Counted from the stretch's first letter, positions 14,146-30,436 are shown. The stretch is DNA of 64,000 nucleotides from Selenomonadaceae bacterium (GCA_017477125.1 JAFUXN010000014.1:1872-65871); one strand, 5' to 3'. A program made the numbers and translations. The notes: generated by a model from the sequence alone, not told the origin.

Positions 14146-17100
14146 TTAAGTCATTTTCTCGCCGACGCTTCCGATGCGCACTTCGCCGAGGTTGAGCGTC
14201 GACTCTTTGAGAGCATCGCGCAGGTCGGGCAGGTATGAGCGGAACTCTCGAGCAGTTTCCTTTTGCGAGAAGTAAAATCTCATGTCGAGCTGATTGCCCT
14301 CGTACACTCTGAACGTGAGTTCGACCGCGCCAATGTTGTCGGTCAACACGCAGATGCGCACCCAAGTTTCTTTGCGTTGTTCGCCGGTCTCCTTGTCGCG
14401 CGCGTTCTCGTCGTAAACGTGCAGGTATGTCGGATAGGAATTTTCGTTGTCGCCCATGTAGAGAGGCATCATCATTTGGAACGAGCGATTGCCCTGCACC
14501 GACGACGAATTGTCGCCGCCCATCGCGTGGCGCATGGCGTTGGCGAACTCGGTGACGTCTCTGCCGGCGCGCTTGAATGCTTTCGCTGACAGTTTGGACG
14601 TGAGAGATGCCATGTCGCACAACTGCATGAACGCCCACAGTCTCGGCAGGTCGGGGAGATTTTGTTGAACGGCTGCCTGCTGAACGGTAACGGGGACATT
14701 CTGCTGACAGAGGCGGAGGAGGTTTTGAAGGTGGCGCGCCTCGCCTTCGGACATCATGGGCTGATTGTTGTTGACGAAGTTCTGAAGCAGAGCGGATTCT
14801 CGTTCGGTGAGGTTGGCTTGCCCGCCGCGCATGAGGAATTGCGCGAGGCTCTTCAAGGCGTCCATGGTTTGGGGCGTGTTCTGCAGGGGCTGTTTGAGCA
14901 TGAATGATTTGGCGTCCTGCATGTCGTTACGCAATTGCAATTGACGCGAGAAGAAATCGTTGGGCTGGGTCGGGCGATCGAATTGGGCTCCGGGCTGATA
15001 CTCTTGGAAGGGCGTCCATTGAGATTGCTGTTGCGGTTGGGCGGATTGTTGATTGGGTTGGGGCTGATTGGCGGGCTGTTGGAAATTTTGTTGTGTGGGT
15101 TGCTGTTGATTGACGGGCGGTTGATTGGGTTGCGGTTGGTTGAATGATTGCGGTTGGGGGTTGTTGATCGGCGGTTGGTTCTGCGGTTGATAACTCTGTT
15201 GTGGTTGCCCTTGATTGGGTTGGGGCTGTTGATAGTTTTGTTGCGGCTGACCTTGATTGGGTTGGGGCTGGTAGTTTTGTTGTGTCAACTGTTGAATGTT
15301 TTGAGGTTGGAAGTTAGGTTGCGGCTGACCCTGATTGGTCGGCGGTTGCTGATAGTTTTGAGGTTGAGAGGATTGCTGATTGGGCTGATTGAATGAAGGC
15401 TGAGAGTTGGGCGGCGCGCCCTGCGGTTGATAATTTTGTTGCGGCTGACCTTGACTGGTCGGCGGTTGATAATTTTGAGGTTGAGTTGATTGTTGATTGG
15501 GCTGATTGAATGAAGGCTGAGAGTTGGGAGGAGCGCCCTGCTGTTGATAATTTTGTTGTGGCTGACCCTGCTTCGTCGGCTGTTGATAGTTTTGAGGTTG
15601 AGCCTGATTGGGCTGATTGAATGAAGGCTGAGAGTTGGGAGGCGGATTCTGCGGCTGATAATTTTGTTGGGGTTGACCTTGATTGGTCGGTTGTTGTTGA
15701 TAGTTTTGAGGTTGAGCAGATTGTTGATTGGGCTGGTTGAATGAAGGCTGAGAGTTTGGAGGAGGATTCTGCGGCTGATAATTTTGTTGGGGCTGACCTT
15801 GATTGGTCGGCTGTTGATAGTTTTGAGGCTGAGCCGATTGTTGATTGGGCTGACTGAATGAAGGCTGAGAGTTTGGAGGCGCGCCTTGCGGTTGATAATT
15901 TTGTTGGGGCTGACCTTGATTCATCGGCTGTTGATAGTTTTGAGGTTGAGAGGATTGTTGATTGGTTTGGTTGAATGAAGGCTGAGAGTTGGGAGGAGCG
16001 CCCTGCGGTTGATAATTTTGTTGCGGTTGACCTTGATTGGTCGGCGGTTGATAATTTTGAGGTTGAGTCGATTGTTGATTGGGCTGATTGAGTGAAGGCT
16101 GAGAGTTTGGAGGCGCGCCCTGCTGTTGATAATTTTGTTGTGGTTGACCCTGATTCTGCGTCGGCTGTTGTTGATAATTCTGTTGTGGTTGACCCTGATT
16201 CTGCGTCGGCTGTTGTTGATAATTTTGTTGTGGCTGACCTTGACTCGTCGGCTGTTGTTGATAATTTTGCTGAGGCTGACCCTGATGGGGTTGAGGCTGA
16301 TAGTTCTGTTGTGGTTGACCCTGATTCGTCGGCGGTTGATAATTTTGCTGTGGTTGAGCCGATTGTTGTTGAGCTTGCGGCTGCTGATTGTTCACCATCG
16401 ATTGGAGGAACTGCCTCGTCCGAGTCATCTGAGGCTGCTGACTTTGCTGACCGCGCGCCGATCGCTGCTCCTGCCCCTGAGCCTGCTCACCTTGCGGCGC
16501 CTCTCCGTCAGCCTTCGATCCATTCGGAGCTTCGGACGTCGGCGTCGGACGCGGCATGAAAAATTTGATCAGCTGATTCAAAAATTGCATGCCTTCCGAT
16601 TGTTGAGCTTGAGGCATCGGTAATGCCGTCGGCGTCCCCTGCGCCAGTTGAGCCAGCACCTCATATAATTTCTCCGGCAGGTCGACCGCGTTCTTCGAGT
16701 CGATCAGTTCGAATGCCGCCTTCGACATCAACACCGGCTCTAACGACTCGCCGCCCTGCTCGCTCACGATCAAATTCTTGAACGCTTTGAAGATAACTTC
16801 CGTCTCGTTGCTCAGCTCCATCGAGAAGCCCTTCTCCGCCAACGCTCCTATCTGCGCCAACATCCTCGCGAACACCGATAACTGCTCCATCGAAAACCGT
16901 TGGCTCTCGAGCGTGCTGCCCACGCCCTGTTTCAACGTCGCGTCCATCGAAAACGCTTGCTGCAGGACGTTCTTGACGATCTGCCCGACCTCGTCCGGCA
17001 ACTTCTCTATTCCAAATCGCTCGCTCGTCGAGATTCGAGACAACAGCCCCGCCATGTCCTCGACTGCCGTCTTCAACAGGACGTTCGTCTGCGGTCGAAA

Positions 17101-17208
17101 GCCGCCGCCCGCGCCTCCATCTTCTCGCCTTTGGACACCATCAGTGCCTCCCGTCCGCTGCGGCTGATTTAACGGTCTTATTCCTATGGCACCTGCGTCC
17201 AATGGCAT
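14146..17208 (-). CDS. FliK-like (YlqG-type) protein with a giant Q/N/P-rich repeat region
   Basis: 1020 aa. The C-terminal roughly 120 aa (ETWVRICVLTDNIGAVELTFRVYEGNQLDMRFYFSQKETAREFRSYLPDLRDALKESTLNLGEVRIG) resemble the hook-length-control (Flg_hook) domain. The gene sits between rnhB and the flhB-like gene, as ylqG does in B. subtilis. Confidence 0.65.
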   Translation of the reverse strand: MPLDAGAIGIRPLNQPQRTGGTDGVQRREDGGAGGGFRPQTNVLLKTAVEDMAGLLSRISTSERFGIEKLPDEVGQIVKNVLQQAFSMDATLKQGVGSTLESQRFSMEQLSVFARMLAQIGALAEKGFSMELSNETEVIFKAFKNLIVSEQGGESLEPVLMSKAAFELIDSKNAVDLPEKLYEVLAQLAQGTPTALPMPQAQQSEGMQFLNQLIKFFMPRPTPTSEAPNGSKADGEAPQGEQAQGQEQRSARGQQSQQPQMTRTRQFLQSMVNNQQPQAQQQSAQPQQNYQPPTNQGQPQQNYQPQPHQGQPQQNYQQQPTSQGQPQQNYQQQPTQNQGQPQQNYQQQPTQNQGQPQQNYQQQGAPPNSQPSLNQPNQQSTQPQNYQPPTNQGQPQQNYQPQGAPPNSQPSFNQTNQQSSQPQNYQQPMNQGQPQQNYQPQGAPPNSQPSFSQPNQQSAQPQNYQQPTNQGQPQQNYQPQNPPPNSQPSFNQPNQQSAQPQNYQQQPTNQGQPQQNYQPQNPPPNSQPSFNQPNQAQPQNYQQPTKQGQPQQNYQQQGAPPNSQPSFNQPNQQSTQPQNYQPPTSQGQPQQNYQPQGAPPNSQPSFNQPNQQSSQPQNYQQPPTNQGQPQPNFQPQNIQQLTQQNYQPQPNQGQPQQNYQQPQPNQGQPQQSYQPQNQPPINNPQPQSFNQPQPNQPPVNQQQPTQQNFQQPANQPQPNQQSAQPQQQSQWTPFQEYQPGAQFDRPTQPNDFFSRQLQLRNDMQDAKSFMLKQPLQNTPQTMDALKSLAQFLMRGGQANLTERESALLQNFVNNNQPMMSEGEARHLQNLLRLCQQNVPVTVQQAAVQQNLPDLPRLWAFMQLCDMASLTSKLSAKAFKRAGRDVTEFANAMRHAMGGDNSSSVQGNRSFQMMMPLYMGDNENSYPTYLHVYDENARDKETGEQRKETWVRICVLTDNIGAVELTFRVYEGNQLDMRFYFSQKETAREFRSYLPDLRDALKESTLNLGEVRIGSVGEKMT
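15391..16207 (-). repeat. In-frame tandem repeats, seven copies with a 111-120 bp period, inside the FliK-like gene
   Basis: The marker GA(A/G)TGAAGGCTGAGAGTT recurs at 15391, 15508, 15619, 15739, 15856, 15973 and 16090. Each unit encodes about 39 aa, e.g. GAPPNSQPSFNQPNQQS.QPQNYQQPTNQGQPQQNYQPQ. Shorter QGQPQQNYQ repeats flank it, spanning about 15048-16443 in total. Confidence 0.9.
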
Positions 17209-17231: not shown

Positions 17232-17912
17232 TTAAAATTTTATCTCGAGTTGCGTCGAGTACAGCGACTTGACCGGCTCATAGCTCCGTCGATGAAGCGG
17301 CGTCGCTCCAAAATTTCTGATCGCCTCGAGATGTTTACGCGTCCCGTATCCGCGATTGTGCGCAAAATCGTATTGAGGATAAAGCTCGTCCCACTCGTCG
17401 GTCATTCGATCGCGCGTCACCTTCGCGATGATTGATGCCGCCGCTATCGTCGCCGACTTCGCATCTCCTCTGATGATCGACAGCGTGCCGATGTCGTCCC
17501 CAAAATAAATTTTCATCGCATCGGTCAAGACGAAGTTCGGTTTAATCGGCAACGCATGCACCGCGCGGATCATCGCTCGCAACGTCGCTTGATAGACGTT
17601 CAATCGATCGATCTCCTCAATCGATGAACAGACGGTTGAGACCGCCAACGCCTTGTCGATGATCTCATAGTATAAAATTTCGCGCCGTCGAGCGGTGAGC
17701 TTCTTGGAATCGTTGAGGTGATCGATGAAGACATCGGGCGGAAGGATCACCGCCGACACCACCAGCGGACCCGCCAACGAGCCGCGTCCAACTTCATCAA
17801 CGCCGGCGATCAGTTCATAGCCCTCGGCTCGATAGTGATCTTCGTACTCGTAGAGGCGGCGCACACGCTCTTCCTCGCGCTCGCGCTTTTTATTCAAATC
17901 TGTTATCGTCAT
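17232..17912 (-). CDS. rnhB: Ribonuclease HII
   Basis: IAGVDEVGRGSLAGPLV, LNDSKKL and DAKSATIAAASIIAKV motifs. Confidence 0.9.
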   Translation of the reverse strand: MTITDLNKKREREEERVRRLYEYEDHYRAEGYELIAGVDEVGRGSLAGPLVVSAVILPPDVFIDHLNDSKKLTARRREILYYEIIDKALAVSTVCSSIEEIDRLNVYQATLRAMIRAVHALPIKPNFVLTDAMKIYFGDDIGTLSIIRGDAKSATIAAASIIAKVTRDRMTDEWDELYPQYDFAHNRGYGTRKHLEAIRNFGATPLHRRSYEPVKSLYSTQLEIKF

Positions 17913-18790
17913 TTCGGATCATTTTCTTCAATCAGATCGAGAGTGATGCGCCCGAGCTTGCCGCTTCGAAATTCGGTCATCACGATGTGTTGAGCCTTAT
18001 CGAGATCGAGCGCACCGCCCTTCCGAAGGCAACCGCGCTTGCGTCCGATCGATTCGAGCAGTTGAGCTCCGTCGGCAGGCAACGGTTCGTCGAGCTTGAA
18101 CCGATCGATCAGTCCCGACGGATATCGAGCGGCAAGAGTTTCGAGCAGCAGACAAACCGTCCGCTCGAGATCGTAAATCTCATCTTTGAGCGCGAACGTC
18201 CACGCGAGTTTGAGAGCGGCGATCGGATCGTCGAACTTCGACCAGAGGATGCCGGGCGTGTCAAGCAATTCGAGATCGCCTTCGAGCTTGATCCATTGCT
18301 TGGCGCGAGTGACGCCGGGGCGATTTTCGATCTTGGTGTGGGCGCCGCCGCTCAACCGATTGATCAGAGACGACTTGCCGACGTTCGGAATGCCGATGAT
18401 CATCACGCGCGCCGCTCGGGGCTTGCCGCCATGCTTGACCATCTTATGAGTGAAGGGCTCGGCGAGTTTCTTGGCGGCGGCGATCAAATTCTTGATGCCC
18501 GTGCCCTTGACCGCGTCGACCGCAACGGCAGTGAGCTGCTCCGCGCGGAAGTGATCGATCCAAGCGGTGGTGAGTTTGGGATCGGCGAGATCGGATTTGC
18601 ACAGCGCGATCAGTCGGGGCTTGGTGCCGAGAATTTTTTTGAGCAGAGGGTTTTGACTGCTTGACGGGATTCGAGCGTCGAGCACTTCAATGATGATGTC
18701 GACGAGCTTGAGATTGGATTCGATGAGGCGTTGCGCCTTCTTCATATGTCCCGGGAACCATTGCAGGGTTGGGAGATCATTTTCGGTCAT
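17909..18790 (-). CDS. rbgA: Ribosome biogenesis GTPase A (YlqF/RbgA)
   Basis: ORF 17909..19186 trimmed to the ATG at 18788-18790 (MTENDLPTLQWFPGHMKKA). It shows the circularly permuted GTPase order: NKSD-like CKSDL, then GIPNVGKSSLIN, then DTPG. The upstream part of the ORF overlaps the addB 3' end. Confidence 0.9.
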   Translation of the reverse strand: MTENDLPTLQWFPGHMKKAQRLIESNLKLVDIIIEVLDARIPSSSQNPLLKKILGTKPRLIALCKSDLADPKLTTAWIDHFRAEQLTAVAVDAVKGTGIKNLIAAAKKLAEPFTHKMVKHGGKPRAARVMIIGIPNVGKSSLINRLSGGAHTKIENRPGVTRAKQWIKLEGDLELLDTPGILWSKFDDPIAALKLAWTFALKDEIYDLERTVCLLLETLAARYPSGLIDRFKLDEPLPADGAQLLESIGRKRGCLRKGGALDLDKAQHIVMTEFRSGKLGRITLDLIEENDPK

Positions 18791-21700
18791 TGTTGATTGC
18801 CTCCTCGATTGAACCGATGATGTCGTCGGTGCCCTTGGTGAGGCGGGCGGCGCGTTGAAGATCGGCGAGCTTCTCTGCGCCCGATTGACGGTTGGGGTTG
18901 GGTGCCAAAAATTTTTCATCGTCAGCGTCGACGGGAGCGGGCTCAATAATTTTTTCTTCGGCGGCGGGAGCGGGCGGCGCAATTTTATTTTCGATCCGTT
19001 GAAGGGCGTCGGCGTCGTCCCAATTCGGCACGAACAGCCAATTTTTGGAGTTGGGCTCGAAACCGCACATCGCTTTGAACTCGCAGAACATGCAACCGTT
19101 ACTCTTATCGTCCTTCTTGAACGGTCGAGCGCTGATCTCTCCGCCGAGCATCTTCTCGCCGATATGCCCGAAGATCGATCGAACATAGCTCATCAAATGC
19201 TCAAGCTCGTCCGCCGTCTTGACGTTGGTCGTCCGACTGAATGAGCCGTCCTTATTGATCCCCGCGCGAATGAATTGCATGGTGCTGTCGATCTTGTTGA
19301 CCACCGACGCATCGCGCAACATCATCCCGATCATTCGAAGGTCTTTATCGATCGCCGCGCGCCCTTCCTCCTCCGTCGTGCCGCCCTCGACCGCCTTCAT
19401 CGGGTTGCGCAACAGAAAGTAAAACATGCCCGCCGGTTGCTTGTCGCTCAACAGTTCGTCAGACACCAACAGATATGTCAGCAGCTGAAGGTTGAGCCCG
19501 AAGTAGAAATCGACGGCGTTGAGCGCCACGCTCGAGCTCGTCTTGTAATCCATGATCAGGAAATAATTCTGCGCCTCGTCGACGTCGATCCGATCGATCC
19601 GTCCGTTGAGCTCCAGCGTCGCACCGTTGAGCTTATGCCTCAATTGCAATTCGCTGTCTCGACCGAATGACGTTTCGAGTTTCAGCGGGTGGAATTTGCT
19701 CACGCGATCGAGCTCGATCAATCGATGCAAACTCTCCGACGCCAGCCGACGTATCCGCTCAAGTTGATACTCGTAAGCCTGCGTGCTCTTCATCAGCCGA
19801 TTGTGCAGACGCGGCGCCACCTCGTCGATCAGCTCGTCGACGATCGATTGCAATTCGAAATCGGCGACGTCGCCCCAATGCCGATTCTCGCTTTGCATGC
19901 GCTCGCCGAACTTTTTAAGGATCGCGTGGAGAATGTTGCCGACGTCGGGCGGACGAAATTTCCATTCGCGCCGCTCCTCCAATCGAAGTCCGTACCGCGC
20001 AAAGTGTTTGAACGGGCATGACATGAAATTTTCAAAGCGGCTCACGCTCCCGCTCAACTTCGACCGTCGAGCGAACAACCGTCTTGCCGTCGACGGAGCC
20101 AATTTCATTTCGCCGACCGTCGGCTCGCGTTGCTCCTCGGGACTGAGCACGTCGATCGGCACAAATTTTTTCTCGACCGTCGGCAACAATTTTAGCAAGC
20201 GATCGAGCAACGACGACGCTTTCATCGCCTTGCCCTCGGCGTCCGCCAACGGATATGATACGTACAGATATTCGCTCGCCTCCGTCAGCCCGCGGTACAG
20301 CAAAAATTTTTCCGCCAAGCTGCTTTCGAGCCCGCCCAACGATATTTCCAAGCCCAAATCTCTCAAGTGCAATCGATCGGCGTCGGTGAATAAGCCCTTC
20401 TCCGTCGAGCGACGCGGCATCAATCCGTCGCTGAATCCCAAAATGTAGATCGCCCGCGCATTCTGCAACGAGTTCTGATCGAATTGAGCAAGCGTCACCT
20501 CGTCGAGACCGGGCGGGATCAGCGACACCTTCAACGAATCGAGCCCCTCATTGATCAGTGCCTCGAAATCCTTCAGCGTGATCGGCTCGTCGCCCAACGC
20601 CTCCGCAAACTGCTCGAGCATCGTCGTCACGTCGTCCCAAATCTTGAGATGTTCCCTCGACAACGCAAGGTCGCCCGCCTCCTGCGCCGCCTTCGACCAA
20701 CCGCTCAACGTCTCATACACGTTCAGGCTTTCGAGCAGCTCATATAAAACTTCCGCGCGGAGTTTGATCGTCTTGGCGTCGCGCAACCGATCGTAGAGCG
20801 TCGACAGCGGTTCGATAATCTGCCGACGAATTTGATCAGTCGTCTCCGAGCGTTTGAGCTGCCACGCCGATTGCTCGTCGAGATCATCATCGACCTCACG
20901 ACGGTGCCACGTCCAAGGCTCCTCCTGCGTCCACTTCTTCTTGCCCCGAACTCCAAACTCGATCGCGTAGTTCTCAAGGTAGTCAACATCATCGCGCTTG
21001 ACATTAAAAAATCCCGTTCGAAGGCAACGGAAGATCGCCTCCGACTTCCAACTCTGCATTTCGAGCGCGGATCGTATGAGCTCCGCCAACGGGTGGTGCG
21101 CGCCGGCGCGTTTGGCGTCATTGAAATAATTGATGCGGTACTTCTCGAATACCGGCTTGATCAGATCGGCGTAAGTGTCATCGCGCAACAGCACTCCGAT
21201 CTCCCGAGGTCGATAGTGCTCCCGATCGATCAGCCGTCTGATCTCGCGCGCAAGCATCTCAACCTCAACCCGACGGCTCGCCGCCTCGATCACCTTCACG
21301 CCCTTGAGCTCCCGATCCAATTTCGCATTCGACGGCGGGAATTTTAATAAGTCTCGTTCAAGCAATCGAAGGGCATCGGATTTAAATCGCAACGGCTCGG
21401 CGAGGCGGGTCACCTTCACATCGAGCGACAGCTCCGCCGCCAATTTTTTGAGCATCGAAAATGTTTGGTACGCTCGATGAAACATGCCAAGCTCCCGACG
21501 ATTTTCGTTGGCGTCGAGCGTCGTCTCCATGGTCAACGTGATGTGCACGTTCCGCGCCGACGACATCAACGCTCGGATCAGATTGCGCTGTTGAGGGTCG
21601 AAGAAGATGAACCCGTCGATGAACACGTCGGCATCTCTGATCTCAACCGATTGCTTAATCATCTCGGCGGCGAGCTCGAGCACGTCTTCATCATCGGTCT

Positions 21701-22211
21701 TCTTGCCCTCGATCAATTGTTTGAAGTCGTCGGCAAGCGTCGCCAGATCGGTCACCTTGTCGGCAAGCTCGTCATCGGTCTCGAATGTCAACTCCCTCAA
21801 CGCGTCGGGATCAATCGAATATGATCGCAACTCCTTCAACTGTTCGGCGAGCGTCTCACTGAAGCCGCGTTGTTTTGCCGCCTTCGCAAAGTATTTCAGT
21901 TGCTCGCGCTTGTTGCGTTCGATCAGAATTTTTTTGAGCAGGAGCCGACGCCCGATATCGGTCAAGCGCGGAATGATCGAGCCGCCGACCTCCGACAAAA
22001 TTTGTTGAGCAAACCGTTGAAAGCTGAGCACGTAAGTGTTGAGCGAGCCGCCCGTTTGCATCGCCAGCTCCCGCTCGAGCTTATAAGTCATGTACGCCGG
22101 CACGAGAAGGTATTGCCGTTCGAGCGGCGTGCCTTTGATCAACGCCGACAGTTGCGCGAGACAATTGAACGTCTTGCCGACGCCCGCCCTCCCGATTATC
22201 AATTCAAGCAT
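18777..22211 (-). CDS. addB: Helicase-nuclease AddAB, subunit B
   Basis: 1144 aa. N-terminal IIGRAGVGKT, and a C-terminal PD-(D/E)XK nuclease with cysteine cluster (CPFKHF ... CMFCEFKAMCGF). Confidence 0.85.
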   Translation of the reverse strand: MLELIIGRAGVGKTFNCLAQLSALIKGTPLERQYLLVPAYMTYKLERELAMQTGGSLNTYVLSFQRFAQQILSEVGGSIIPRLTDIGRRLLLKKILIERNKREQLKYFAKAAKQRGFSETLAEQLKELRSYSIDPDALRELTFETDDELADKVTDLATLADDFKQLIEGKKTDDEDVLELAAEMIKQSVEIRDADVFIDGFIFFDPQQRNLIRALMSSARNVHITLTMETTLDANENRRELGMFHRAYQTFSMLKKLAAELSLDVKVTRLAEPLRFKSDALRLLERDLLKFPPSNAKLDRELKGVKVIEAASRRVEVEMLAREIRRLIDREHYRPREIGVLLRDDTYADLIKPVFEKYRINYFNDAKRAGAHHPLAELIRSALEMQSWKSEAIFRCLRTGFFNVKRDDVDYLENYAIEFGVRGKKKWTQEEPWTWHRREVDDDLDEQSAWQLKRSETTDQIRRQIIEPLSTLYDRLRDAKTIKLRAEVLYELLESLNVYETLSGWSKAAQEAGDLALSREHLKIWDDVTTMLEQFAEALGDEPITLKDFEALINEGLDSLKVSLIPPGLDEVTLAQFDQNSLQNARAIYILGFSDGLMPRRSTEKGLFTDADRLHLRDLGLEISLGGLESSLAEKFLLYRGLTEASEYLYVSYPLADAEGKAMKASSLLDRLLKLLPTVEKKFVPIDVLSPEEQREPTVGEMKLAPSTARRLFARRSKLSGSVSRFENFMSCPFKHFARYGLRLEERREWKFRPPDVGNILHAILKKFGERMQSENRHWGDVADFELQSIVDELIDEVAPRLHNRLMKSTQAYEYQLERIRRLASESLHRLIELDRVSKFHPLKLETSFGRDSELQLRHKLNGATLELNGRIDRIDVDEAQNYFLIMDYKTSSSVALNAVDFYFGLNLQLLTYLLVSDELLSDKQPAGMFYFLLRNPMKAVEGGTTEEEGRAAIDKDLRMIGMMLRDASVVNKIDSTMQFIRAGINKDGSFSRTTNVKTADELEHLMSYVRSIFGHIGEKMLGGEISARPFKKDDKSNGCMFCEFKAMCGFEPNSKNWLFVPNWDDADALQRIENKIAPPAPAAEEKIIEPAPVDADDEKFLAPNPNRQSGAEKLADLQRAARLTKGTDDIIGSIEEAINNDRK

Positions 22212-23496: not shown

Positions 23497-23536
23497 TGCT
23501 CCTCCTAAAAAATTTTTATCCCGCCCACCCGCCCAT

Positions 23537-23759
23537 GAAGGCTGACGCCTTCGACCGTTGGGGGCATTGAAGGCTGACGCCTTCGACCGTTGGGGGCATT
23601 GAAGGCTGACACCTTCGACCAATCCTATACAAGGTTCTGAAGGGACTACGCCCTTCGACCCAAACAGTTTTAAAGGCTCATGCCTTTCGACCACAATAGT
23701 TTTGATCGTTGACAGAGGGAAGGGCGATTCGCCACGTGAGCAGGCGGGCGCCCGTTTTT
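23537..23759. repeat. Palindromic repeat cluster of the same family as at 3.3-3.7 kb and 7.9-8.3 kb
   Basis: GAAGGCTGACGCCTTCGACC occurs at 23537, 23569 and 23601 (32-bp period). Diverged copies lie at 23639-23660 and 23672-23692. The large hairpin AAGGGCGATTCGCCACGTGAGCAGGCGGGCGCCCGTTTTT follows at 23720-23759. The whole cluster is preceded by AAAAAATTTTTATCCCGCCCACCCGCCC (23508-23534). Confidence 0.8.
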
Positions 23760-23885
23760 CCCCGTCGCCCCTATTGGGGCTTAACCCATCGTCTTACCGG
23801 TGGCAGTCGACGACTCGCTTAAGCGGTATATCGTAGACGGGCGCCCGTTCTTTCATCGTCCCCCGCGACCGCTCCCGAGTGGGGA

Positions 23886-26729
23886 TCAATTATCGAAGCC
23901 GTTGAGCTTGAGCAGCAGAAATTCCTCCTCATCTTTGCTCAGCACTTGCCCTTGGATCAGTTTCTTCACGACCGATTGCATCTTGAACAGTCGGCGCTTT
24001 TCGTCCGAACTGAAGTACACATTCATCTCCTCGAGCGTGCGCAACGCCTCGTCGATCGAGTCGTCTTTGATGTCGTTATCCGTCCGTCGATCGCATATCC
24101 AACCCAACGCCAGCACACAACAGATCAGTTCGTCGACCGACAGGCGCAGGTTGAGGATCGCATCGCACAACTCGCTCACCACGACATTCTTATCGACTCG
24201 CGTTTTCGTCTGACGCCCGTCGAGATAAAACGCCAGCCCGATCGAGTACGAACTGAATTGGATATTGCTCTTCATGCCGCGCTTGAGGATCACCACGTCG
24301 CGCTTGAAACAATCGTAAATCCAATCGATCTGCGTCTTGGTCTTGGCGTGAGTGTAGAGACAAGCGTTGAGATATCGATCGTCCGAATGCAACCGCTCCA
24401 ATTGATTTAACTGCTCCGTCGACGCGCACATGCTCATCGCGAAGATCGCTTGCATTTTTGTATTGGTGCTCGCCGACGAACTCCAATAATCCCTGAGATT
24501 GATCCCTTGAAGATCGCTGTCGAGCTGCAACATGCATTCGGTTGCCAGCCGACGCTTCTGATCTTCCGTCCAAGCGCTGCCGATCTTGCGCGCGATGATG
24601 AAACATCTCTGCTTGAACTCGTTGCTCCTCGTGCCGGAGATCATTCGAAGGATCGGAGCGGCGAAGTCGGCGACATTGCCCGCGGTGCACACGCTGTTGA
24701 CCAACGTTCTGATCTCCTTGGCGATGGCTGATTTCTTTGCGACAAACGATTTGCCGTAGAGATTTTCGTAGTTTCGACAGAGCTGTTCGATGTTGTTGAG
24801 CACCGCCTCGGGCTTGAGGTTGGTGCCGACGCGCGGAATGATCTTATTCTTCTTGTCGGTGCTGAAGTCGTTATGAATCGAAATGTCAACGCGCCCCTGC
24901 TCGAGCACTTGAGTGCCGTCGACATCGTTGCACGTCCACGCCTCCATCGTGATCACTTTCGAGCTCGCCATGTACACTCGAAACGCAACGTAAGCGCCAT
25001 CGGGATATTTGCGCGTGAAGACGATATTGCCGCGCGCGATCACCCGATAGGTGCTGTCGATGTTGCGGCTCAAGATCGGGATCGTGATCTGCTTGTAATT
25101 GGGCATCAGCTTAAAGCCCTTCATCATCTCCGACGTGTAAGGCAGTTCGGCGCCCGACGGAATGATCTTGACCTGCGTATCGTTCTTGGTCGCGAGGTAG
25201 AGGCTATCGTTGAGAATGTTCCTGCCCCATTCGATCGACAGCGGCGCCTTGAGCAGAGTAGCTCCGTCGTCGGACTCGAATTTTTTGTCGGCGGCGCTCT
25301 TTGCGGAATCGGTATCGCCGACCATGCGCATGTCGTCCTTGATCTCTTCGAAGCGGTGAAGGTAGTAGTGATAGACGGCGGCGCCTCTGGCGACTGCTTG
25401 ATCGGGATCGAGCGCGACGATCGGATCGAACCCGAAGAATTGTTTGAGGCGATCGGTGATCATATAGAACTTCGACATGCCGCCGTTCATGATCACCGCG
25501 TCGATCACAATTTTATCGGTCTTGAGCTTGTCCGCCGCCTTGTTGAGCACGTCCAGGATCGGATAGATGATGTTGCGCGTATTGTTGTCGCCGGTCAGCT
25601 CGTCGAGTTTTTTGTAGTCGTCGAAGGTCAAATGCGTGCCCATGAACGGGCTCAAAATCTCCTCGATCTCCTCAACCGTGAAGGTATCGTCGTAAGCGTA
25701 GCCGGTCGAACTGATGTTGCCGCCGATGGGGAAATCGTTATCCTCCTCGTCCTCGTCCCAGCCCGACGAAACGATGTCCTCATTCTTGCGATCGCTGAGC
25801 TCGAGCTTAAGTTCCTCGGCGTAGACGAGCAGTTGAGGCATGATCGTCTTCTTCTCCCGACGGAGCTTATTGACGATCTCGGTGTGGCGCTCGTGCTGCT
25901 TGACGTACCGACGAAACATCGCTTCGGCGATCGCTTGATCAAAGTCGTCGCCGCCGAGCAGAGTATAACGGTTGGTGGCGATCTCCTCGACCTTAAGAAT
26001 TTCTTTTGAGCGATCGCGCCGCTCGATCGAATGAAGAGTGATATCGAGCGTGCCGCCGCCGAGATCGAACACCATCACGTGCCGCTTCTTGCTGAGGTCG
26101 AGCACGTTGGCGGGAATTTCTCCGTTGTGAGCCTGATTGATGAAATCGTAGATGACGGCGTTGGGCTCGCTCAACAGCACGGGACGTTCAGACTCGTCGG
26201 CGTTTTTGATCTTGATGCCTGCGATCTCCGCCGCGTCTCTTGTCGCTCGACACATGCTTGAATCGAAATTTGCCGGCACGGTTATGACCGCATCATCGAT
26301 TTTGGTTCTGAAGATGCGTTCGGCGTGACGGAGCATGTGTTCGAGGATCCGCGCGGAGATTTGAGCGGGAGTTTTATCGGGGACTTCGGGGGCGAGTCCG
26401 GTTGCAAACTCTCGCCCCATCTGGCTCTTGATCGATTTGGCGACCAAGTGCGGTCTGACCGAGTAACGTTTCTTGGCAAAATCGCCGACCACCGTTTTAT
26501 AATGATGCTCGTCGTCGTAGTAGACGCACGAGGGCAGAGTGGGTTTTCGTTGAGTATTAAACTTCGCGCCTTCGACGACGGTATAAGTGTCGACCGCGCG
26601 AGGAATTTCCACCACCTTGCTTATGATATCTCCATTGAGCTTGACATTTATGATCGACAGCACGGAATTTGTCGTGCCCAGGTCGATCCCGACGCACAGG
26701 TCGTTGTGTTCTTCTCCTTTAATATTCAT
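23886..26729 (-). CDS. Hsp70-family ATPase with substrate-binding-like beta domain and a long helical C-terminal extension
   Basis: 947 aa. The actin-like NBD motifs are intact: VGIDLGTTNS, AVITVPANFD, EPNAVIYDF, VFDLGGGTLDI, LGGDDFD and MNGGMSKF...DPDQAVARGAA. About 130 aa of beta-rich sequence follow, then about 300 aa that look like helical repeats and have no DnaK counterpart. Confidence 0.8.
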   Translation of the reverse strand: MNIKGEEHNDLCVGIDLGTTNSVLSIINVKLNGDIISKVVEIPRAVDTYTVVEGAKFNTQRKPTLPSCVYYDDEHHYKTVVGDFAKKRYSVRPHLVAKSIKSQMGREFATGLAPEVPDKTPAQISARILEHMLRHAERIFRTKIDDAVITVPANFDSSMCRATRDAAEIAGIKIKNADESERPVLLSEPNAVIYDFINQAHNGEIPANVLDLSKKRHVMVFDLGGGTLDITLHSIERRDRSKEILKVEEIATNRYTLLGGDDFDQAIAEAMFRRYVKQHERHTEIVNKLRREKKTIMPQLLVYAEELKLELSDRKNEDIVSSGWDEDEEDNDFPIGGNISSTGYAYDDTFTVEEIEEILSPFMGTHLTFDDYKKLDELTGDNNTRNIIYPILDVLNKAADKLKTDKIVIDAVIMNGGMSKFYMITDRLKQFFGFDPIVALDPDQAVARGAAVYHYYLHRFEEIKDDMRMVGDTDSAKSAADKKFESDDGATLLKAPLSIEWGRNILNDSLYLATKNDTQVKIIPSGAELPYTSEMMKGFKLMPNYKQITIPILSRNIDSTYRVIARGNIVFTRKYPDGAYVAFRVYMASSKVITMEAWTCNDVDGTQVLEQGRVDISIHNDFSTDKKNKIIPRVGTNLKPEAVLNNIEQLCRNYENLYGKSFVAKKSAIAKEIRTLVNSVCTAGNVADFAAPILRMISGTRSNEFKQRCFIIARKIGSAWTEDQKRRLATECMLQLDSDLQGINLRDYWSSSASTNTKMQAIFAMSMCASTEQLNQLERLHSDDRYLNACLYTHAKTKTQIDWIYDCFKRDVVILKRGMKSNIQFSSYSIGLAFYLDGRQTKTRVDKNVVVSELCDAILNLRLSVDELICCVLALGWICDRRTDNDIKDDSIDEALRTLEEMNVYFSSDEKRRLFKMQSVVKKLIQGQVLSKDEEEFLLLKLNGFDN

Positions 26730-26750
26730 GGGCTGCCTCCAAATTTTAAT

Positions 26751-27839
26751 TTAATCATCGTCTCCGAGCTCCTTGATCTTTGGTCGAGCAATTTGAATAT
26801 CCTTGTCGGTATAAATCCAACCGGGGGAGATGACGCGAACGATCTTCTCATCGTCCTTGTCGGCGAAGGGCGTGCCCTCGTAGTCGCAGAACTCTATATC
26901 GGATGCCTTGACGATCTTCTCATCGTCGAGCTTCATGATCGGATTGATGTGACTGTCCTTGACGAACTGGATCAATTTCTGCGTGATGATGAACAGCCCG
27001 CTGAGTTCGGGCGGCAATTCGTAGTGATTTTTTTTGAGAGTGTTGACCCCCTTCCTGACGCTCAACAGCCCGTCGAGAATGCAACCGTACTTCTCCGAGT
27101 TGAGGCGCGAGAAAAATTCGGTGAGCTCCTTGGTTTTGCTCTCGAGCAGAGACTCTTCGAACTCGTCTTGGAGTGCTTGAGTGAGCCGCTCGTTGCGCTC
27201 GAGCAGAGTTTTCAACCGTTCGATCTCGTAGCTTGCATCTTCGACGGCGGATTTGGATTTCGTTCCTCTCGACGGACGTTTGAGCGCACCGCAATATCGG
27301 GCAAGCGCGTCGGTGAGATCGTCGAGGAAATCATTGGCGTACGCGTTTTTGAAGTGCTCGAGCAGTTTGAGATCGTCATAGATGTCGAGCTCGGGATGCT
27401 TGCAATAGATCATCAACACGCCGATCCGTTCCTGCAGTTTATAACGCGATCCCTCCTGAGTGAGCACGTCGGTCTTGCGATGATTTTTAAAGCGCATGAA
27501 GTCGTCGGGGTCGGCGCTGTTGAGCGCTTGGAGCAAGAGCTTGGCAAGTTCGTCCGCCCAATCGAGCAGTTCGCGACGTTTCTGTCGATGCGAGATGTGG
27601 AACTTCCTGAACTGGCGAATGATGTCATAGCCGCGCAAATCGGTGCCGACGGCTTCATTGAGTTTCTCTGCGTACTCGCGCGGTTCACCGTCGGCGTTGA
27701 GGCAGATGATCCCGAACAATTGATTTTCGCGAATGACGTCCTCATCAACGTAATCGCTCGCCTTCTGATATTTTTGTTTGACGCAACCATGCACGTCGGA
27801 CAAAAATCTTCGCACCTTGTCGCTTTTAAAATCTATCAA
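26751..27839 (-). CDS. Hypothetical protein, GrpE-like C-terminus (tentative)
   Basis: 362 aa with a long coiled-coil middle. The C-terminal EGTPFADKDDEKIVRVISPGWIYTDKDIQIARPKIKE resembles the GrpE beta-domain pattern (FDP..H....V..v..GY......R.A.V.V). The call is by eye only. Confidence 0.4.
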   Translation of the reverse strand: MIDFKSDKVRRFLSDVHGCVKQKYQKASDYVDEDVIRENQLFGIICLNADGEPREYAEKLNEAVGTDLRGYDIIRQFRKFHISHRQKRRELLDWADELAKLLLQALNSADPDDFMRFKNHRKTDVLTQEGSRYKLQERIGVLMIYCKHPELDIYDDLKLLEHFKNAYANDFLDDLTDALARYCGALKRPSRGTKSKSAVEDASYEIERLKTLLERNERLTQALQDEFEESLLESKTKELTEFFSRLNSEKYGCILDGLLSVRKGVNTLKKNHYELPPELSGLFIITQKLIQFVKDSHINPIMKLDDEKIVKASDIEFCDYEGTPFADKDDEKIVRVISPGWIYTDKDIQIARPKIKELGDDD

Positions 27840-27859
27840 TGCATTACACTCCTTTGTGA

Positions 27860-28957
27860 TCAGAAAACATAAGTCTCGAAGTCATTGGCGAATACGAATT
27901 GGGTACGGCAATCGGCATCGTTCATCAGCACCTGCTCGACCGTCGCATCGAAGGGATCGAGCGAGGGAGGGCTGTGCACCAGCACCGCCGTCTTCGGATT
28001 GATCCGCTTTATAAATTCGACGGTGTCATTGAAATCGTCGTGGAGCGCAAAATCTTCGTCGAGCCGCTCATACCTCGGATCGAACGGAAAGCGCGGGTCC
28101 TTACTCAACACCACGTTGGGATATTTTTTCGGCGCGGCGCCCAACGGATAATTATTTTCTCGTCGAATCCGAATGAATTGATCTTCCAACCGCTCGCTCA
28201 AACGCAACACAAAATCATCGAGGTAGATCGGAACGTTGAGGGCGGAGTTGAGCAAAGCCAACAGTTCAATCCCCTTGCTCAACTGTCGGACGCGGTAGAA
28301 GACCGAACGCCCTTCCTTCAGCAGTCGTTTGATCTTCTGAACGATGAAGGGCAACTTGCCGTGCAATCGACGATAGCTTGAATGCCTGGCGTGGAGCCCG
28401 CACATTATCAACAGATCGATATCGACGTCGGGGAAGTAGCAGCCGCTCGTGAAAGGCGTGTCGGCGATCGAATAGTCGCCGGTGTAGAGAATGCGGCGGT
28501 TGCGAAATTCGAGCAAGGTCATCATCGCGCCGGGGATATGTCCCGCTTGAGCGAAGGTCGCGCGCCATTTGCCGAACGGAATTTGTTGAGCGTAGCTGAC
28601 ACGGGTGACGACGGAGTTGAGCAGCTCGCGCTTGATCGAGTAATCGCCCTGTTGGAAGTTGCTCAACTGATGGTCGATCAGATTGAAAGTCATGTCGGTC
28701 ATGCAGACGGCGGGCGATTGCGATTGCATGAGGAAGTCGGGCAACCAACCCGCGTGATCGAGATGAGCATGCGAGATGAATATCTGAGAGATTTGCGCGA
28801 GGCTCTGAAGGTAAGGCGTCGAGAGGAGCGCGTGGAAGTTTGGCGCGAACGGCACGCCATGTTTGAAACCGATGCCGCAATCGAGCAGAATGTTTGAGTT
28901 GCCGAGCTTGAGGAAGTAGCACGAGGCGCCGATCGATTGTCCTCCGCCGAGCGGCAT
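27860..28957 (-). CDS. MBL-fold metallo-hydrolase, beta-CASP-like nuclease
   Basis: GASCYFL, ISHAHLDHAGWLP, GHIPGAMM, TGDYS, and the C-terminal FALHDDFNDTVEFIKRINPKTAVLVHSPP (beta-CASP motif-C-like). The start is uncertain: ATG 28955-28957 is chosen, a GGAGG lies about 30 nt upstream, and the long ORF to 29131 overlaps the MATE start. Confidence 0.7.
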   Translation of the reverse strand: MPLGGGQSIGASCYFLKLGNSNILLDCGIGFKHGVPFAPNFHALLSTPYLQSLAQISQIFISHAHLDHAGWLPDFLMQSQSPAVCMTDMTFNLIDHQLSNFQQGDYSIKRELLNSVVTRVSYAQQIPFGKWRATFAQAGHIPGAMMTLLEFRNRRILYTGDYSIADTPFTSGCYFPDVDIDLLIMCGLHARHSSYRRLHGKLPFIVQKIKRLLKEGRSVFYRVRQLSKGIELLALLNSALNVPIYLDDFVLRLSERLEDQFIRIRRENNYPLGAAPKKYPNVVLSKDPRFPFDPRYERLDEDFALHDDFNDTVEFIKRINPKTAVLVHSPPSLDPFDATVEQVLMNDADCRTQFVFANDFETYVF

Positions 28958-29098
28958 GAAAATGATTTGATTTGATCTCGTCGCCGGCTCACCTCCTTCT
29001 TGGCAAATGATCTTATAGTTTAATGGCGACGGCGTCAATAATATTTTGGTGTGAAATTTTTTCGATCGGAGTATAATCGCTTTCAGAGGTGAACGACC

Positions 29099-30436
29099 AT
29101 GTTTCGCAGCAGGGAAATTGACATGCTTCACGGCTCGATTTGGGACAAGATCATTTGGTTTGCGATCCCGCTGGCGTTGACGGGCGTGATGAATCAGCTG
29201 TTCAACACCGCCGACGTCGCGGTGCTGGGCAAATTCGTCGGCAAAGAGGCGATGGCGGCAGTCGGCAACAACATCTCATTGATCGGGTTGCTGGTCAATC
29301 TGTTCATGGGATTGTCGCTCGGCGCCAACGTCGTGATCGCTCAACACATCGGCGCTCAACGATCCGCTCAAGCGCACGCCGCCGTTCAAACCGCATTCGT
29401 GCTGGCGCTCGTGACGGGCGTCGGGATTGTGATCGTCGGGGAGGCGGCGACGTCGACGGTGCTCGCTTGGCTCGAGGTTCCGCATGAGGTTGAGAGCATG
29501 GCGGAGACTTATCTGCGAATGTATCTGTTGAGCATGCCGGCGATGAGCGTCTACAACTTCGAAGCGGCGATGTTCAGGAGCAAGGGCGATACCAACACGC
29601 CGTTGATCGCACTCGCGATCGCCAGCGGACTCAACCTCGTGCTCAATCTGATCTTCGTATCGACGTTCGAGGACGGAGTGTTCGGCGTGGGGCTCGCGAC
29701 GGTGATCGCCGACTCGGTCAGCGCGCTGATCCTCATGGTCGAACTGATCCGCGCGGAGGGCGTCGTTCATCTCGACATTCATTCGTTGATGATCGATCGG
29801 GCGGAGCTCAAGGAGATCGTTCGCATCGGCATGCCCGCCGGCATTCAAGGCATGGTCTTCTCGATCTCCAACCTGCTGATCCAAGCGGCGATCAATTCTT
29901 TGGGAGCAGATGCGATGGCGGCGTCGGCAGCGGCGTTCACGATCGAAATCAACGTGTTCTGCATCATCAGCGCCTTCGCTCAAGCGACGACCACCTTCGT
30001 CAGTCAAAACTTCGGCGCGCGAAACTTTGCGCGGTGCCGACGAGTGACTTGGATATCGATCGGGCTCGACGGGATTTTCATGGGCGCGCTGTCGATCTTC
30101 ATCTTGGTGTTCGCCGAAGAGTTGTTGAGGTTCTTCAACGCCGACCCGAATGTCGTGGCGCTCGGCAAGCTCAGATTGTGGTACATCGTCGCGCCCGAGT
30201 CGATCAACATCGTGCTCGAGGGACTGTCGGGAGCGTTGAGAGGCTACGGCATTTCCCTGGCGCCGGCGATCCTCGTCTTGATCGGAGTGTGCGGCGTGCG
30301 GATCACATGGCTGTTTACGATCTTCATGAGCGCGCCGACCTATGAGACGTTGATGACCGCCTACCCCGTCAGCTGGTTCGTGACGACCGCGCTCGTCGCA
30401 TGCGCCTATCGTTTTTACATCGCCCACATCAATTAA
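29099..30436 (+). CDS. MATE-family efflux transporter
   Basis: 445 aa, about 12 TM segments. The N-terminal WDKIIWFAIPLALTGVMNQLFNTADVAVLG is typical of MATE. GAGGTG RBS. Confidence 0.85.
   Translation: MFRSREIDMLHGSIWDKIIWFAIPLALTGVMNQLFNTADVAVLGKFVGKEAMAAVGNNISLIGLLVNLFMGLSLGANVVIAQHIGAQRSAQAHAAVQTAFVLALVTGVGIVIVGEAATSTVLAWLEVPHEVESMAETYLRMYLLSMPAMSVYNFEAAMFRSKGDTNTPLIALAIASGLNLVLNLIFVSTFEDGVFGVGLATVIADSVSALILMVELIRAEGVVHLDIHSLMIDRAELKEIVRIGMPAGIQGMVFSISNLLIQAAINSLGADAMAASAAAFTIEINVFCIISAFAQATTTFVSQNFGARNFARCRRVTWISIGLDGIFMGALSIFILVFAEELLRFFNADPNVVALGKLRLWYIVAPESINIVLEGLSGALRGYGISLAPAILVLIGVCGVRITWLFTIFMSAPTYETLMTAYPVSWFVTTALVACAYRFYIAHIN

Follow-up and report, generated by a model that had tools for sequence, protein, structure and literature searches.

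A conserved three-gene module encoding a CPSF73-like beta-CASP metallo-beta-lactamase (MBL) hydrolase, a putatively GrpE-like adaptor and an Hsp70-like ATPase was identified on the minus strand of a 64,000-nucleotide stretch of DNA from a Selenomonadaceae bacterium (GCA_017477125.1 JAFUXN010000014.1:1872-65871), henceforth referred to as the window. Gene 1, which encodes the MBL enzyme, spans 27860..28957 and yields a 365-aa product when read from its first ATG at 28957. It is followed by gene 2 (26751..27839; 362 aa, TTG start), encoding the middle protein and proposed adaptor, referred to as MID, and by gene 3 (23886..26729; 947 aa), encoding the Hsp70-like ATPase. The original prediction, made by a model from the window sequence, had described three minus-strand genes 20-21 nt apart, and the open reading frame (ORF) coordinates indeed leave gaps of 20 nt (27840-27859) between genes 1 and 2 and of 21 nt (26730-26750) between genes 2 and 3. 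The three genes form one self-contained operon whose order, conservation and domain identities are documented below. Our preferred interpretation, to which we assign a probability of about 0.5, is that the Hsp70 cycle gates the CPSF73-like ribonuclease (RNase) through the GrpE-like adaptor in a conflict or defence setting. The case for defence is circumstantial.

Conservation and distribution of the trio

Co-occurrence of the three genes in other genomes, whose absence had been named beforehand as refuting the original prediction, proved to be strong. By tblastn, the order MBL–MID–Hsp70 was kept across 87 loci from more than 80 species wherever the contig was long enough, L008 and L011 excepted, and distant clades at 23-37% identity still keep the trio. 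When all neighbouring ORFs were clustered, only the three trio families recurred, with no fourth conserved gene; the next commonest neighbours, TatC, TauE and UbiD, recur because of synteny within one lineage. Searches of all neighbouring ORFs with hidden Markov models (HMMs) returned no distant copies of MID or of the Hsp70 tail. The trio is a real, conserved three-gene module.

Its distribution is sparse. In a survey of 185,579 genomes, one per species, MID relatives were present in 115 (~0.06%). The hosts are mostly Lachnospiraceae and Selenomonadaceae, together with Treponema, Ruminococcaceae, Pectinatus, Eubacteriaceae and others, and the carriers amount to more than 100 gut, rumen and oral bacterial species. 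A word-indexed search placed 350 unannotated homologues in the MID family, and an exhaustive HMMER search, counted in clusters at 50% identity, gave 350, of which 274 scored E<=1e-10.

Two architectural variants join parts of the module. At locus L100 the MBL and MID sequences occur as a natural fusion (P0293) followed by an Hsp70 gene. At L095 (163-3153) a 996-aa fusion combines TPR/Sel1 repeats, an MBL domain and a Beta-Casp domain recognised by Pfam, and is located upstream of a MID relative that matches Pfam GrpE. No description of the trio was found in the literature on Hsp70, beta-CASP, MBL, GrpE and defence, or among the PADLOC and NCBIfam models, and the original prediction, too, had not recognised it as a named defence system.

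The Hsp70-like ATPase

The gene 3 product matched Pfam HSP70 (PF00012) at 4.4e-43. Alignment to E. coli DnaK placed residues D8, K70, E171, D194, T199 and D201 of DnaK at D16, K101, E188, D222, T227 and D229 of the window protein, and the GG adenosine motif is also present. All of the DnaK catalytic positions are invariant among 32 homologues. The protein contains the phosphate-1, phosphate-2 and adenosine motifs and the catalytic Lys, Glu and Asp of an actin-like nucleotide-binding domain (NBD), and the claim that it keeps its nucleotide-binding motifs was upheld. With its active site intact, it is an active-looking ATPase in the proposed model.

An AlphaFold model of the protein (predicted local distance difference test, pLDDT, 75.6) resolved four regions. 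The NBD (aa 1-462, nt 25344-26729) is followed by a low-confidence, sequence-variable and disordered linker (aa 465-504), which stands where DnaK has a conserved hydrophobic interdomain linker. Next comes a sandwich (aa 505-618, nt 24876-25217) whose eight strands, at 510-616, identify it as resembling the beta part of the DnaK substrate-binding domain (SBD-beta). The C-terminus is a 15-helix solenoid tail of ~300 aa (aa 640-942, nt 23904-24812), which occupies the place of the alpha-helical lid (SBD-alpha) of DnaK. The best Foldseek matches were NBD+SBD-beta structures of DnaK and BiP, lid-less DnaK included (E~1e-25), and the alignments to lid-less DnaK covered >620 columns. The model and the structural matches agree with the earlier description of a beta-sandwich-like region and a helical tail of about 300 aa replacing the lid. 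Mean pairwise identity was 0.75 for the NBD, 0.67 for the sandwich and 0.48 for the tail. The window protein is 54-57% identical to Lachnospiraceae copies and 48-51% identical to most Selenomonadaceae copies, hinting at horizontal transfer.

A housekeeping dnaK/grpE heat-shock operon of unusual form would likewise place an Hsp70 NBD beside a GrpE-like protein. The window protein, however, scored only 146 bits against the NCBIfam DnaK equivalog (cut-off 648) and 142 bits against the HscA equivalog (cut-off 620). It lacks a lid and a conserved interdomain linker, no hrcA or dnaJ accompanies it, and the gene order is different. Furthermore, dnaK is near-universal in bacteria, whereas the trio is as rare as the species survey indicates. 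This explanation was rejected, being effectively refuted by score, missing parts and rarity, and the original prediction had set it aside as well.

The trio proteins contain no J domain by tblastn and Pfam, as originally noted, and neither a J domain nor HrcA occurs among the recurrent neighbours. A DnaJ gene adjoins the trio in one of ~90 loci: at L016 (315-1310) a DnaJ+DnaJ_C (CbpA-like) gene lies directly 5' of the trio in one Robinsoniella metagenome-assembled genome only, which may reflect chance or point to a J-protein that partners the trio occasionally. An [HFY]-P-E-L-D loop in MID was considered as a J-domain HPD and rejected, as it is not a conserved HPD.

The CPSF73-like beta-CASP enzyme

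The gene 1 product matched Pfam Lactamase_B (3e-12) and, weakly, RMMBL (2e-3), and the NCBIfam models aCPSF1 (3e-17), Cas14 (3e-16) and also RNase J. The best match among the sequences of solved structures was CPSF-73 (5e-21), and archaeal CPSF, Ysh1, IntS11, TTHA0252 and Cas14 were matched as well (5e-21 to 1e-10). The FALHDDF…LVHSP segment of the window protein aligns with FSAHTDY…LVHGE of CPSF-73, the tail comprising motifs B and C. Across 73 homologues there is no variation in MBL motifs 1-4 (D26, H63-x-H65-x-D67-H68, H140 and D161) or in beta-CASP motifs B (H306) and C (H328), so that the earlier reading of the first gene as an MBL enzyme with a beta-CASP-like motif C holds. At motif A, the window clade has an invariant Cys186 in place of Asp or Glu, whereas distant clades carry the canonical Glu. 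Pfam Beta-Casp did not match the window protein and did match its L095 relative. Judged from its sequence, the MBL enzyme is most likely an RNase effector.

The MBL enzyme might instead be the sole client of a dedicated chaperone, with the Hsp70 and exchange factor folding, metallating or assembling it as HscA/HscB do for IscU; in that case the reaction catalysed by the hydrolase, possibly not nucleic-acid cleavage, would define the biological role. Specialised Hsp70s with a single client are known, HscA being the precedent. Many of the MBL homologues have recorded matches to Pfam Anti-Pycsar_Apyc1, a cyclic-nucleotide phosphodiesterase model, and some distant short MBL variants are devoid of the beta-CASP insert. 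The Apyc1 matches, however, probably reflect generic similarity within the MBL fold, and the best and longest matches of the enzyme are to beta-CASP RNases, motifs B and C included. A variable solenoid tail of 300 aa together with an SBD-beta also exceeds what a single client would be expected to need, and we consider a client-dedicated chaperone quite unlikely.

The proposed GrpE-like adaptor

The window MID matched no Pfam, NCBIfam or PADLOC model. Its AlphaFold model (pLDDT 84.8) consists of a helical domain at the N-terminus (aa 1-182, nt 27294-27839) and a C-terminal module (aa 197-358, nt 26766-27251) in which a 50-residue helix is followed by two further helices, forming a helical hairpin, and a small beta domain at 298-357. 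The order of these elements in the C-terminal half equals that of GrpE.

The relationship to GrpE was detected through distant relatives. Two of them, P0398 (1.4e-5, 25.3 bits) and P0388 (4.1e-5, 23.8 bits), matched Pfam GrpE just under its gathering score of 25.8 bits, with their C-terminal halves covering model positions 9-161 of 165; a third, P0344, has a weak precomputed GrpE match. P0398 is in turn tied to the window MID family by hhalign at a probability of 99.3%. A 104-sequence profile of the MID C-terminal half aligned collinearly by hhalign with a three-sequence GrpE alignment (E. coli, Geobacillus, human) at a probability of 80.5% (E 1.3e-5, score 38.6), while one reversed and 20 column-shuffled controls gave scores of 8-16 and E-values of about 0.1-0.9. 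Against PDB sequences, hmmsearch with the narrow MID profile returned chance RRM matches only. Because distant relatives match Pfam GrpE and the broad profile outperforms its controls, homology of the MID C-terminal half to GrpE is accepted with moderate confidence. The GrpE likeness that the original prediction claimed for the C-terminal beta domain was sustained by way of distant relatives; the window protein itself gave no GrpE match.

Conservation within MID is 0.61 for the GrpE-like half and 0.39 for the N-terminal domain. Across the module, the NBD and the GrpE-like half are the most conserved parts, and the Hsp70 tail and the MID N-terminal domain the most variable. The existence of an MBL–MID fusion and the better conservation of the GrpE-like half suggest that MID bridges, or tethers, the nuclease to the Hsp70 NBD.

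Genomic context

A number of loci carry recognisable defence genes beside the trio. L100 adjoins a type III restriction–modification (R-M) system, L101 adjoins Cas1-Cas2, and L102 adjoins DarT, an IS110 element, a Macro domain gene (DarG-like) and an nSTAND-like gene; at L088 a type III-A CRISPR locus lies 4 kb from the trio. At L007 and L027 the trio adjoins type I R-M, a PIN–Hsp70 fusion and further Hsp70 paralogues. In these two Lachnospiraceae arrays (L007 5394-21503 and L027 446-11993) the PIN–Hsp70 fusion of ~770 aa stands directly upstream of the trio, and downstream of it uncharacterised proteins of 263, 563 and 473 aa alternate with short Hsp70 paralogues (~490-560 aa). The L007 array is preceded by type I R-M and followed by an SNF2 helicase, and one of its Hsp70 paralogues matches PADLOC PDC-M61B at 6e-12. 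The arrays may represent a second, separate Hsp70-based system. The window Hsp70 itself matched PDC-M61B over 100 residues only (18.4 bits, E 1.8e-4), too weakly to count as a significant match.

PADLOC models were used to survey 270 non-redundant neighbours within 5 kb of the trio in 53 loci at E<=1e-15. Strong matches comprised type I and II R-M, Cas6_IIIa (twice), OLD, a DRT reverse transcriptase, ZorB with ZorD, PDC-S02 and PDC-S26; GlgB and helicases were matched in a generic way. By our estimate, in which the PADLOC matches were not mapped to individual loci, some 10-12 of the 53 loci (~20%) adjoin a bona fide defence system. That share would be several-fold above the few per cent expected at random, a background rate that is itself a rough figure taken without a matched control. 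The flanks are highly variable, and in Lachnospiraceae nearly unique to each species.

Several observations weigh against the proposed gating of an RNase in defence. The immediate neighbourhood of the trio in the window is housekeeping, since its flanks are queF, a kinase gene and addB on one side and MATE, ilvE-like and cdaA genes on the other. The flanks are mostly housekeeping across the other loci too, and ~80% of the surveyed loci have no known defence gene within 5 kb. One Selenomonadaceae subgroup keeps the trio beside tatC, and three close relatives of the window, with neighbour proteins 81-95% identical, keep it at the same site with similar divergence. A search for an empty site by means of the MATE gene found none: these three relatives carry the trio, and remoter MATE homologues are not syntenic. 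MID was not found in viral contigs, phage genomes or plasmids, and no PADLOC model was convincingly matched by the trio proteins. As regards the adaptor, the window MID had no Pfam GrpE (PF01025) match at E<=0.1, its narrow profile aligned to GrpE by hhalign at a probability of 0.5%, and a Foldseek search of PDB with the full-length model gave nothing significant (GrpE 1dkg_A at rank 47, E 3.2). The module is also incomplete in places. L008 and L011, on short contigs, have other genes 5' of MID and no MBL upstream, and L096 (7437-10971) encodes a short MBL and a GrpE-like adaptor but, within 9 kb, no Hsp70; the adaptor at L096 might use the housekeeping DnaK. The earlier suggestion of a conflict or defence module is supported in part. 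It draws circumstantial support from the defence genes within 5 kb of about a fifth of the loci and from the distant variants that abut R-M, Cas1-Cas2 or DarTG, and is opposed by the housekeeping surroundings of most loci, the absence from phage, viral and plasmid collections and the stable inheritance in close relatives.

The same observations bear on the main rival, an accessory RNA-processing or RNA quality-control module with no part in defence. In this reading, the CPSF73/RNase J-like RNase would receive ribonucleoproteins delivered or remodelled by a specialised Hsp70 with its own exchange factor, for example at stalled ribosomes or on damaged RNA under stress. The closest MBL relatives are all cellular RNA-processing enzymes, and the mostly housekeeping flanks, the absence from the mobile-element collections searched, the stable inheritance of the trio with its neighbours in the window clade and the tatC-linked synteny in many Selenomonadaceae all fit such a role. 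A very patchy distribution (115 of 185,579 species) and almost entirely unique Lachnospiraceae flanks are, however, not what it would lead one to expect, nor are the repeated adjacency of defence genes and the linkage to a PIN–Hsp70 fusion. We judge it unlikely, though less so than the other alternatives.

The DarTG toxin–antitoxin system beside one locus, along with the MBL–adaptor fusions and the MBL and adaptor pairs that occur without Hsp70, raises the prospect of an addiction module resembling toxin–antitoxin–chaperone (TAC) systems. Here the MBL toxin would be held by an adaptor whose stability or neutralising conformation requires the dedicated Hsp70, on the model of SecB-dependent TAC systems. 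The three genes do correspond to a nuclease, a small partner and a chaperone. Antiphage defence by TAC systems has been reported (bioRxiv 10.1101/2024.02.24.581848). Such an addiction module overlaps with our preferred interpretation, because modules of this kind can also serve in defence. MID, however, is large, predicted to be well folded and GrpE-like rather than a short labile antitoxin, and the trio was not found on the plasmids or phages searched. An addiction module is regarded as unlikely.

Proposed mechanism

For the gating of the RNase in a conflict or defence setting, which we continue to prefer, we infer complex formation, nucleotide exchange, an RNA substrate and a defence role. 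The three products probably work as a complex. The GrpE-like module of MID would dock on the Hsp70 NBD, probably as a dedicated nucleotide-exchange factor, and the N-terminal helical domain of MID would hold the nuclease. The SBD-beta sandwich and the variable helical tail probably recognise a ligand, most plausibly a protein and possibly RNA, that would arise during attack by phages or mobile elements or in related stress. The ATP/ADP cycle of the Hsp70 would then gate the activity of the MBL enzyme or its access to substrate. This interpretation draws on the strict co-occurrence of the genes, the MBL–MID fusion, the GrpE homology, the intact active sites and the RNA-cleaving relatives of the MBL. 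It is further supported by the conservation pattern, the defence neighbours and the patchy distribution with largely unique flanks.

A bolder version, offered tentatively and at less than even odds, is that the trio represents an unrecognised type of prokaryotic immunity, with sensing done by the Hsp70 cycle. A protein or ribonucleoprotein derived from phage would be bound by the SBD and variable solenoid tail of the dedicated Hsp70, and the GrpE-like exchange factor would couple this binding to the tethered CPSF73-like RNase, so that viral or host RNA would be destroyed. More widely, GrpE-like adaptors might be a general means of wiring effectors to Hsp70s, a notion with which the MBL and adaptor pairs devoid of Hsp70 and the PIN–Hsp70 fusions beside the trio are compatible.

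Hsp70 chaperones are among the best-studied proteins. To our knowledge, dedicated Hsp70s in conflict systems have appeared only as computational predictions, always alongside GTPases. The trio provides a compact and directly testable case in which an active-looking Hsp70 is encoded with its own putative GrpE-like factor and a CPSF73-type nuclease. A role in defence would show how immunity can be switched by a chaperone cycle, and several hundred unannotated protein clusters of one family would thereby acquire a function. If the role is in RNA processing instead, the trio would provide the first example in bacteria of a beta-CASP RNase served by an Hsp70 system of its own. Overlooked by standard annotation with Pfam and NCBIfam, a divergent and probably GrpE-like domain, fused to a new helical domain, was also identified.

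Comparison with known systems

Type III-B/C CoCoNuT systems encode CnuD, a protein with an Hsp70-like NBD/SBD, HEAT-like repeats and degenerate Walker A-like motifs, which always accompanies an McrB-like NxD GTPase and an McrC homologue (PMC11090510). Compared by description, CnuD and the window Hsp70 both combine an NBD, an SBD and a C-terminal helical-repeat region in one protein. Nucleases are encoded alongside in each case, and CoCoNuT systems are predicted to target RNA in defence. The partners differ: CnuD is found with the McrB-like NxD GTPase (CnuB), an McrC/DUF2357 homologue with coiled coils and HEPN RNases, and none of these domains was detected in the trio or its recurrent neighbours, which places the trio outside CoCoNuT. 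In addition, the ATP motifs of CnuD are degenerate whereas all catalytic residues of the trio Hsp70 are invariant, and the trio has both a GrpE-like partner and a beta-CASP enzyme, which CnuD systems do not.

GAP1-N2 GTPase-centric predicted conflict systems carry Hsp70 and GrpE (Kaur, Burroughs, Iyer & Aravind 2020; PMC7159879) and, like the trio, pair a dedicated Hsp70 with an exchange factor apart from the housekeeping operon. These systems, mainly from actinobacteria and firmicutes, are built on a GTPase core with FNIII/DnaJ or TPR proteins. In contrast, the trio has no GTPase and no J domain, its candidate effector is a beta-CASP nuclease, and its GrpE-like module is fused to a novel helical domain of 180 aa.

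Canonical DnaK–GrpE pairs share with the trio the NBD fold, the catalytic residues, an SBD-beta-like sandwich and the GrpE topology of the partner. The trio differs from them in having no lid, hydrophobic linker or J protein and in its added solenoid tail of ~300 aa; its Hsp70 falls far under the DnaK and HscA cut-offs, and its GrpE likeness is detectable only via distant relatives. CPSF-73, aCPSF1, IntS11, TTHA0252 and the type VII CRISPR protein Cas14 have MBL motifs 1-4 and beta-CASP motifs B and C in common with the gene 1 product. Unlike those RNases, the gene 1 product is much smaller at 365 aa, with a short insert, no KH or C-terminal domains and a Cys at motif A.

TAC systems and DnaJ-dependent sensing by bNACHT25 share with the proposal the concept that a chaperone, or its occupancy by a phage protein, acts as the sensor that releases an effector. 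Their components (a SecB-like chaperone in TAC, host DnaJ for bNACHT25) are unrelated to the trio proteins, and the likeness is one of analogy only.

Features of the locus and neighbouring genes

Genes 2 and 3 are each preceded by a GGAG/GGAGG site, and the MIDFK N-terminus of the gene 2 product agrees with its homologues. For gene 1 the start is uncertain. A strong GGAGG is located ~35 nt 5' of the first ATG, the interval contains no canonical in-frame start, and homologues have 7-20 additional N-terminal residues. The ORF remains open (27860..29131, minus strand) up to a GTG at 29131, and a start there would overlap the start of the divergent MATE gene (MatE transporter, 29099..30436, plus strand). 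A promoter-like site on the minus strand at 29010..29038, TTGACG with a 17-nt spacer and TAAGAT, falls in the 141-nt intergenic region common to gene 1 and the MATE gene. It matches the sigma-70 consensus, at a frequency of matches not above that expected from shuffled sequence.

The trio had been described as bounded by a divergent MATE gene and palindromic repeats, and both boundaries were located. The repeats are five tandem ~32-nt units (23536..23703), each a GAAGGC-TGAC-GCCTTC hairpin, which lie 3' of the Hsp70-like gene, between its stop codon and queF, and hence 5' of the latter. Beside the cluster is a perfect 11-nt inverted repeat with arms at 23745-23755 and 23837-23847. Rfam searches of the repeat region matched no family and gave no sign of a preQ1 riboswitch 5' of queF. 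Past the repeats, queF is followed by a pyridoxal/hydroxymethylpyrimidine (HMP)-type kinase gene and addB; on the opposite side of the trio the MATE gene is followed by the ilvE-like and cdaA genes.

Additional genes were observed at other loci. At L096 the MBL and adaptor pair has a Y_phosphatase3 gene on its upstream side and a radical SAM gene on its downstream side. In an Intestinibacter-type clade (L098 5758-8020 and L103 1374-3636), a WCX-domain protein of ~430 aa and an uncharacterised 326-330-aa protein are conserved and encoded immediately 5' of the trio. An association exists between WCX domains and WYL-type regulators, and the two proteins may be a regulator and an extra component.

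Elsewhere in the window, the ORF that follows addB (18777-22211, minus strand) is not addA; it encodes an MMR_HSR1-type GTPase (17909-19186), whose longest frame overlaps the 3' end of addB by ~410 nt. FliD is encoded at 40457-42631. A 1020-aa ORF at 14146-17208 on the minus strand has a C-terminal FliK (flagellar hook-length control) domain, and the stretch that holds it displays an unusually strong strand asymmetry, with a GC skew of +0.30 and an AT skew of -0.31.

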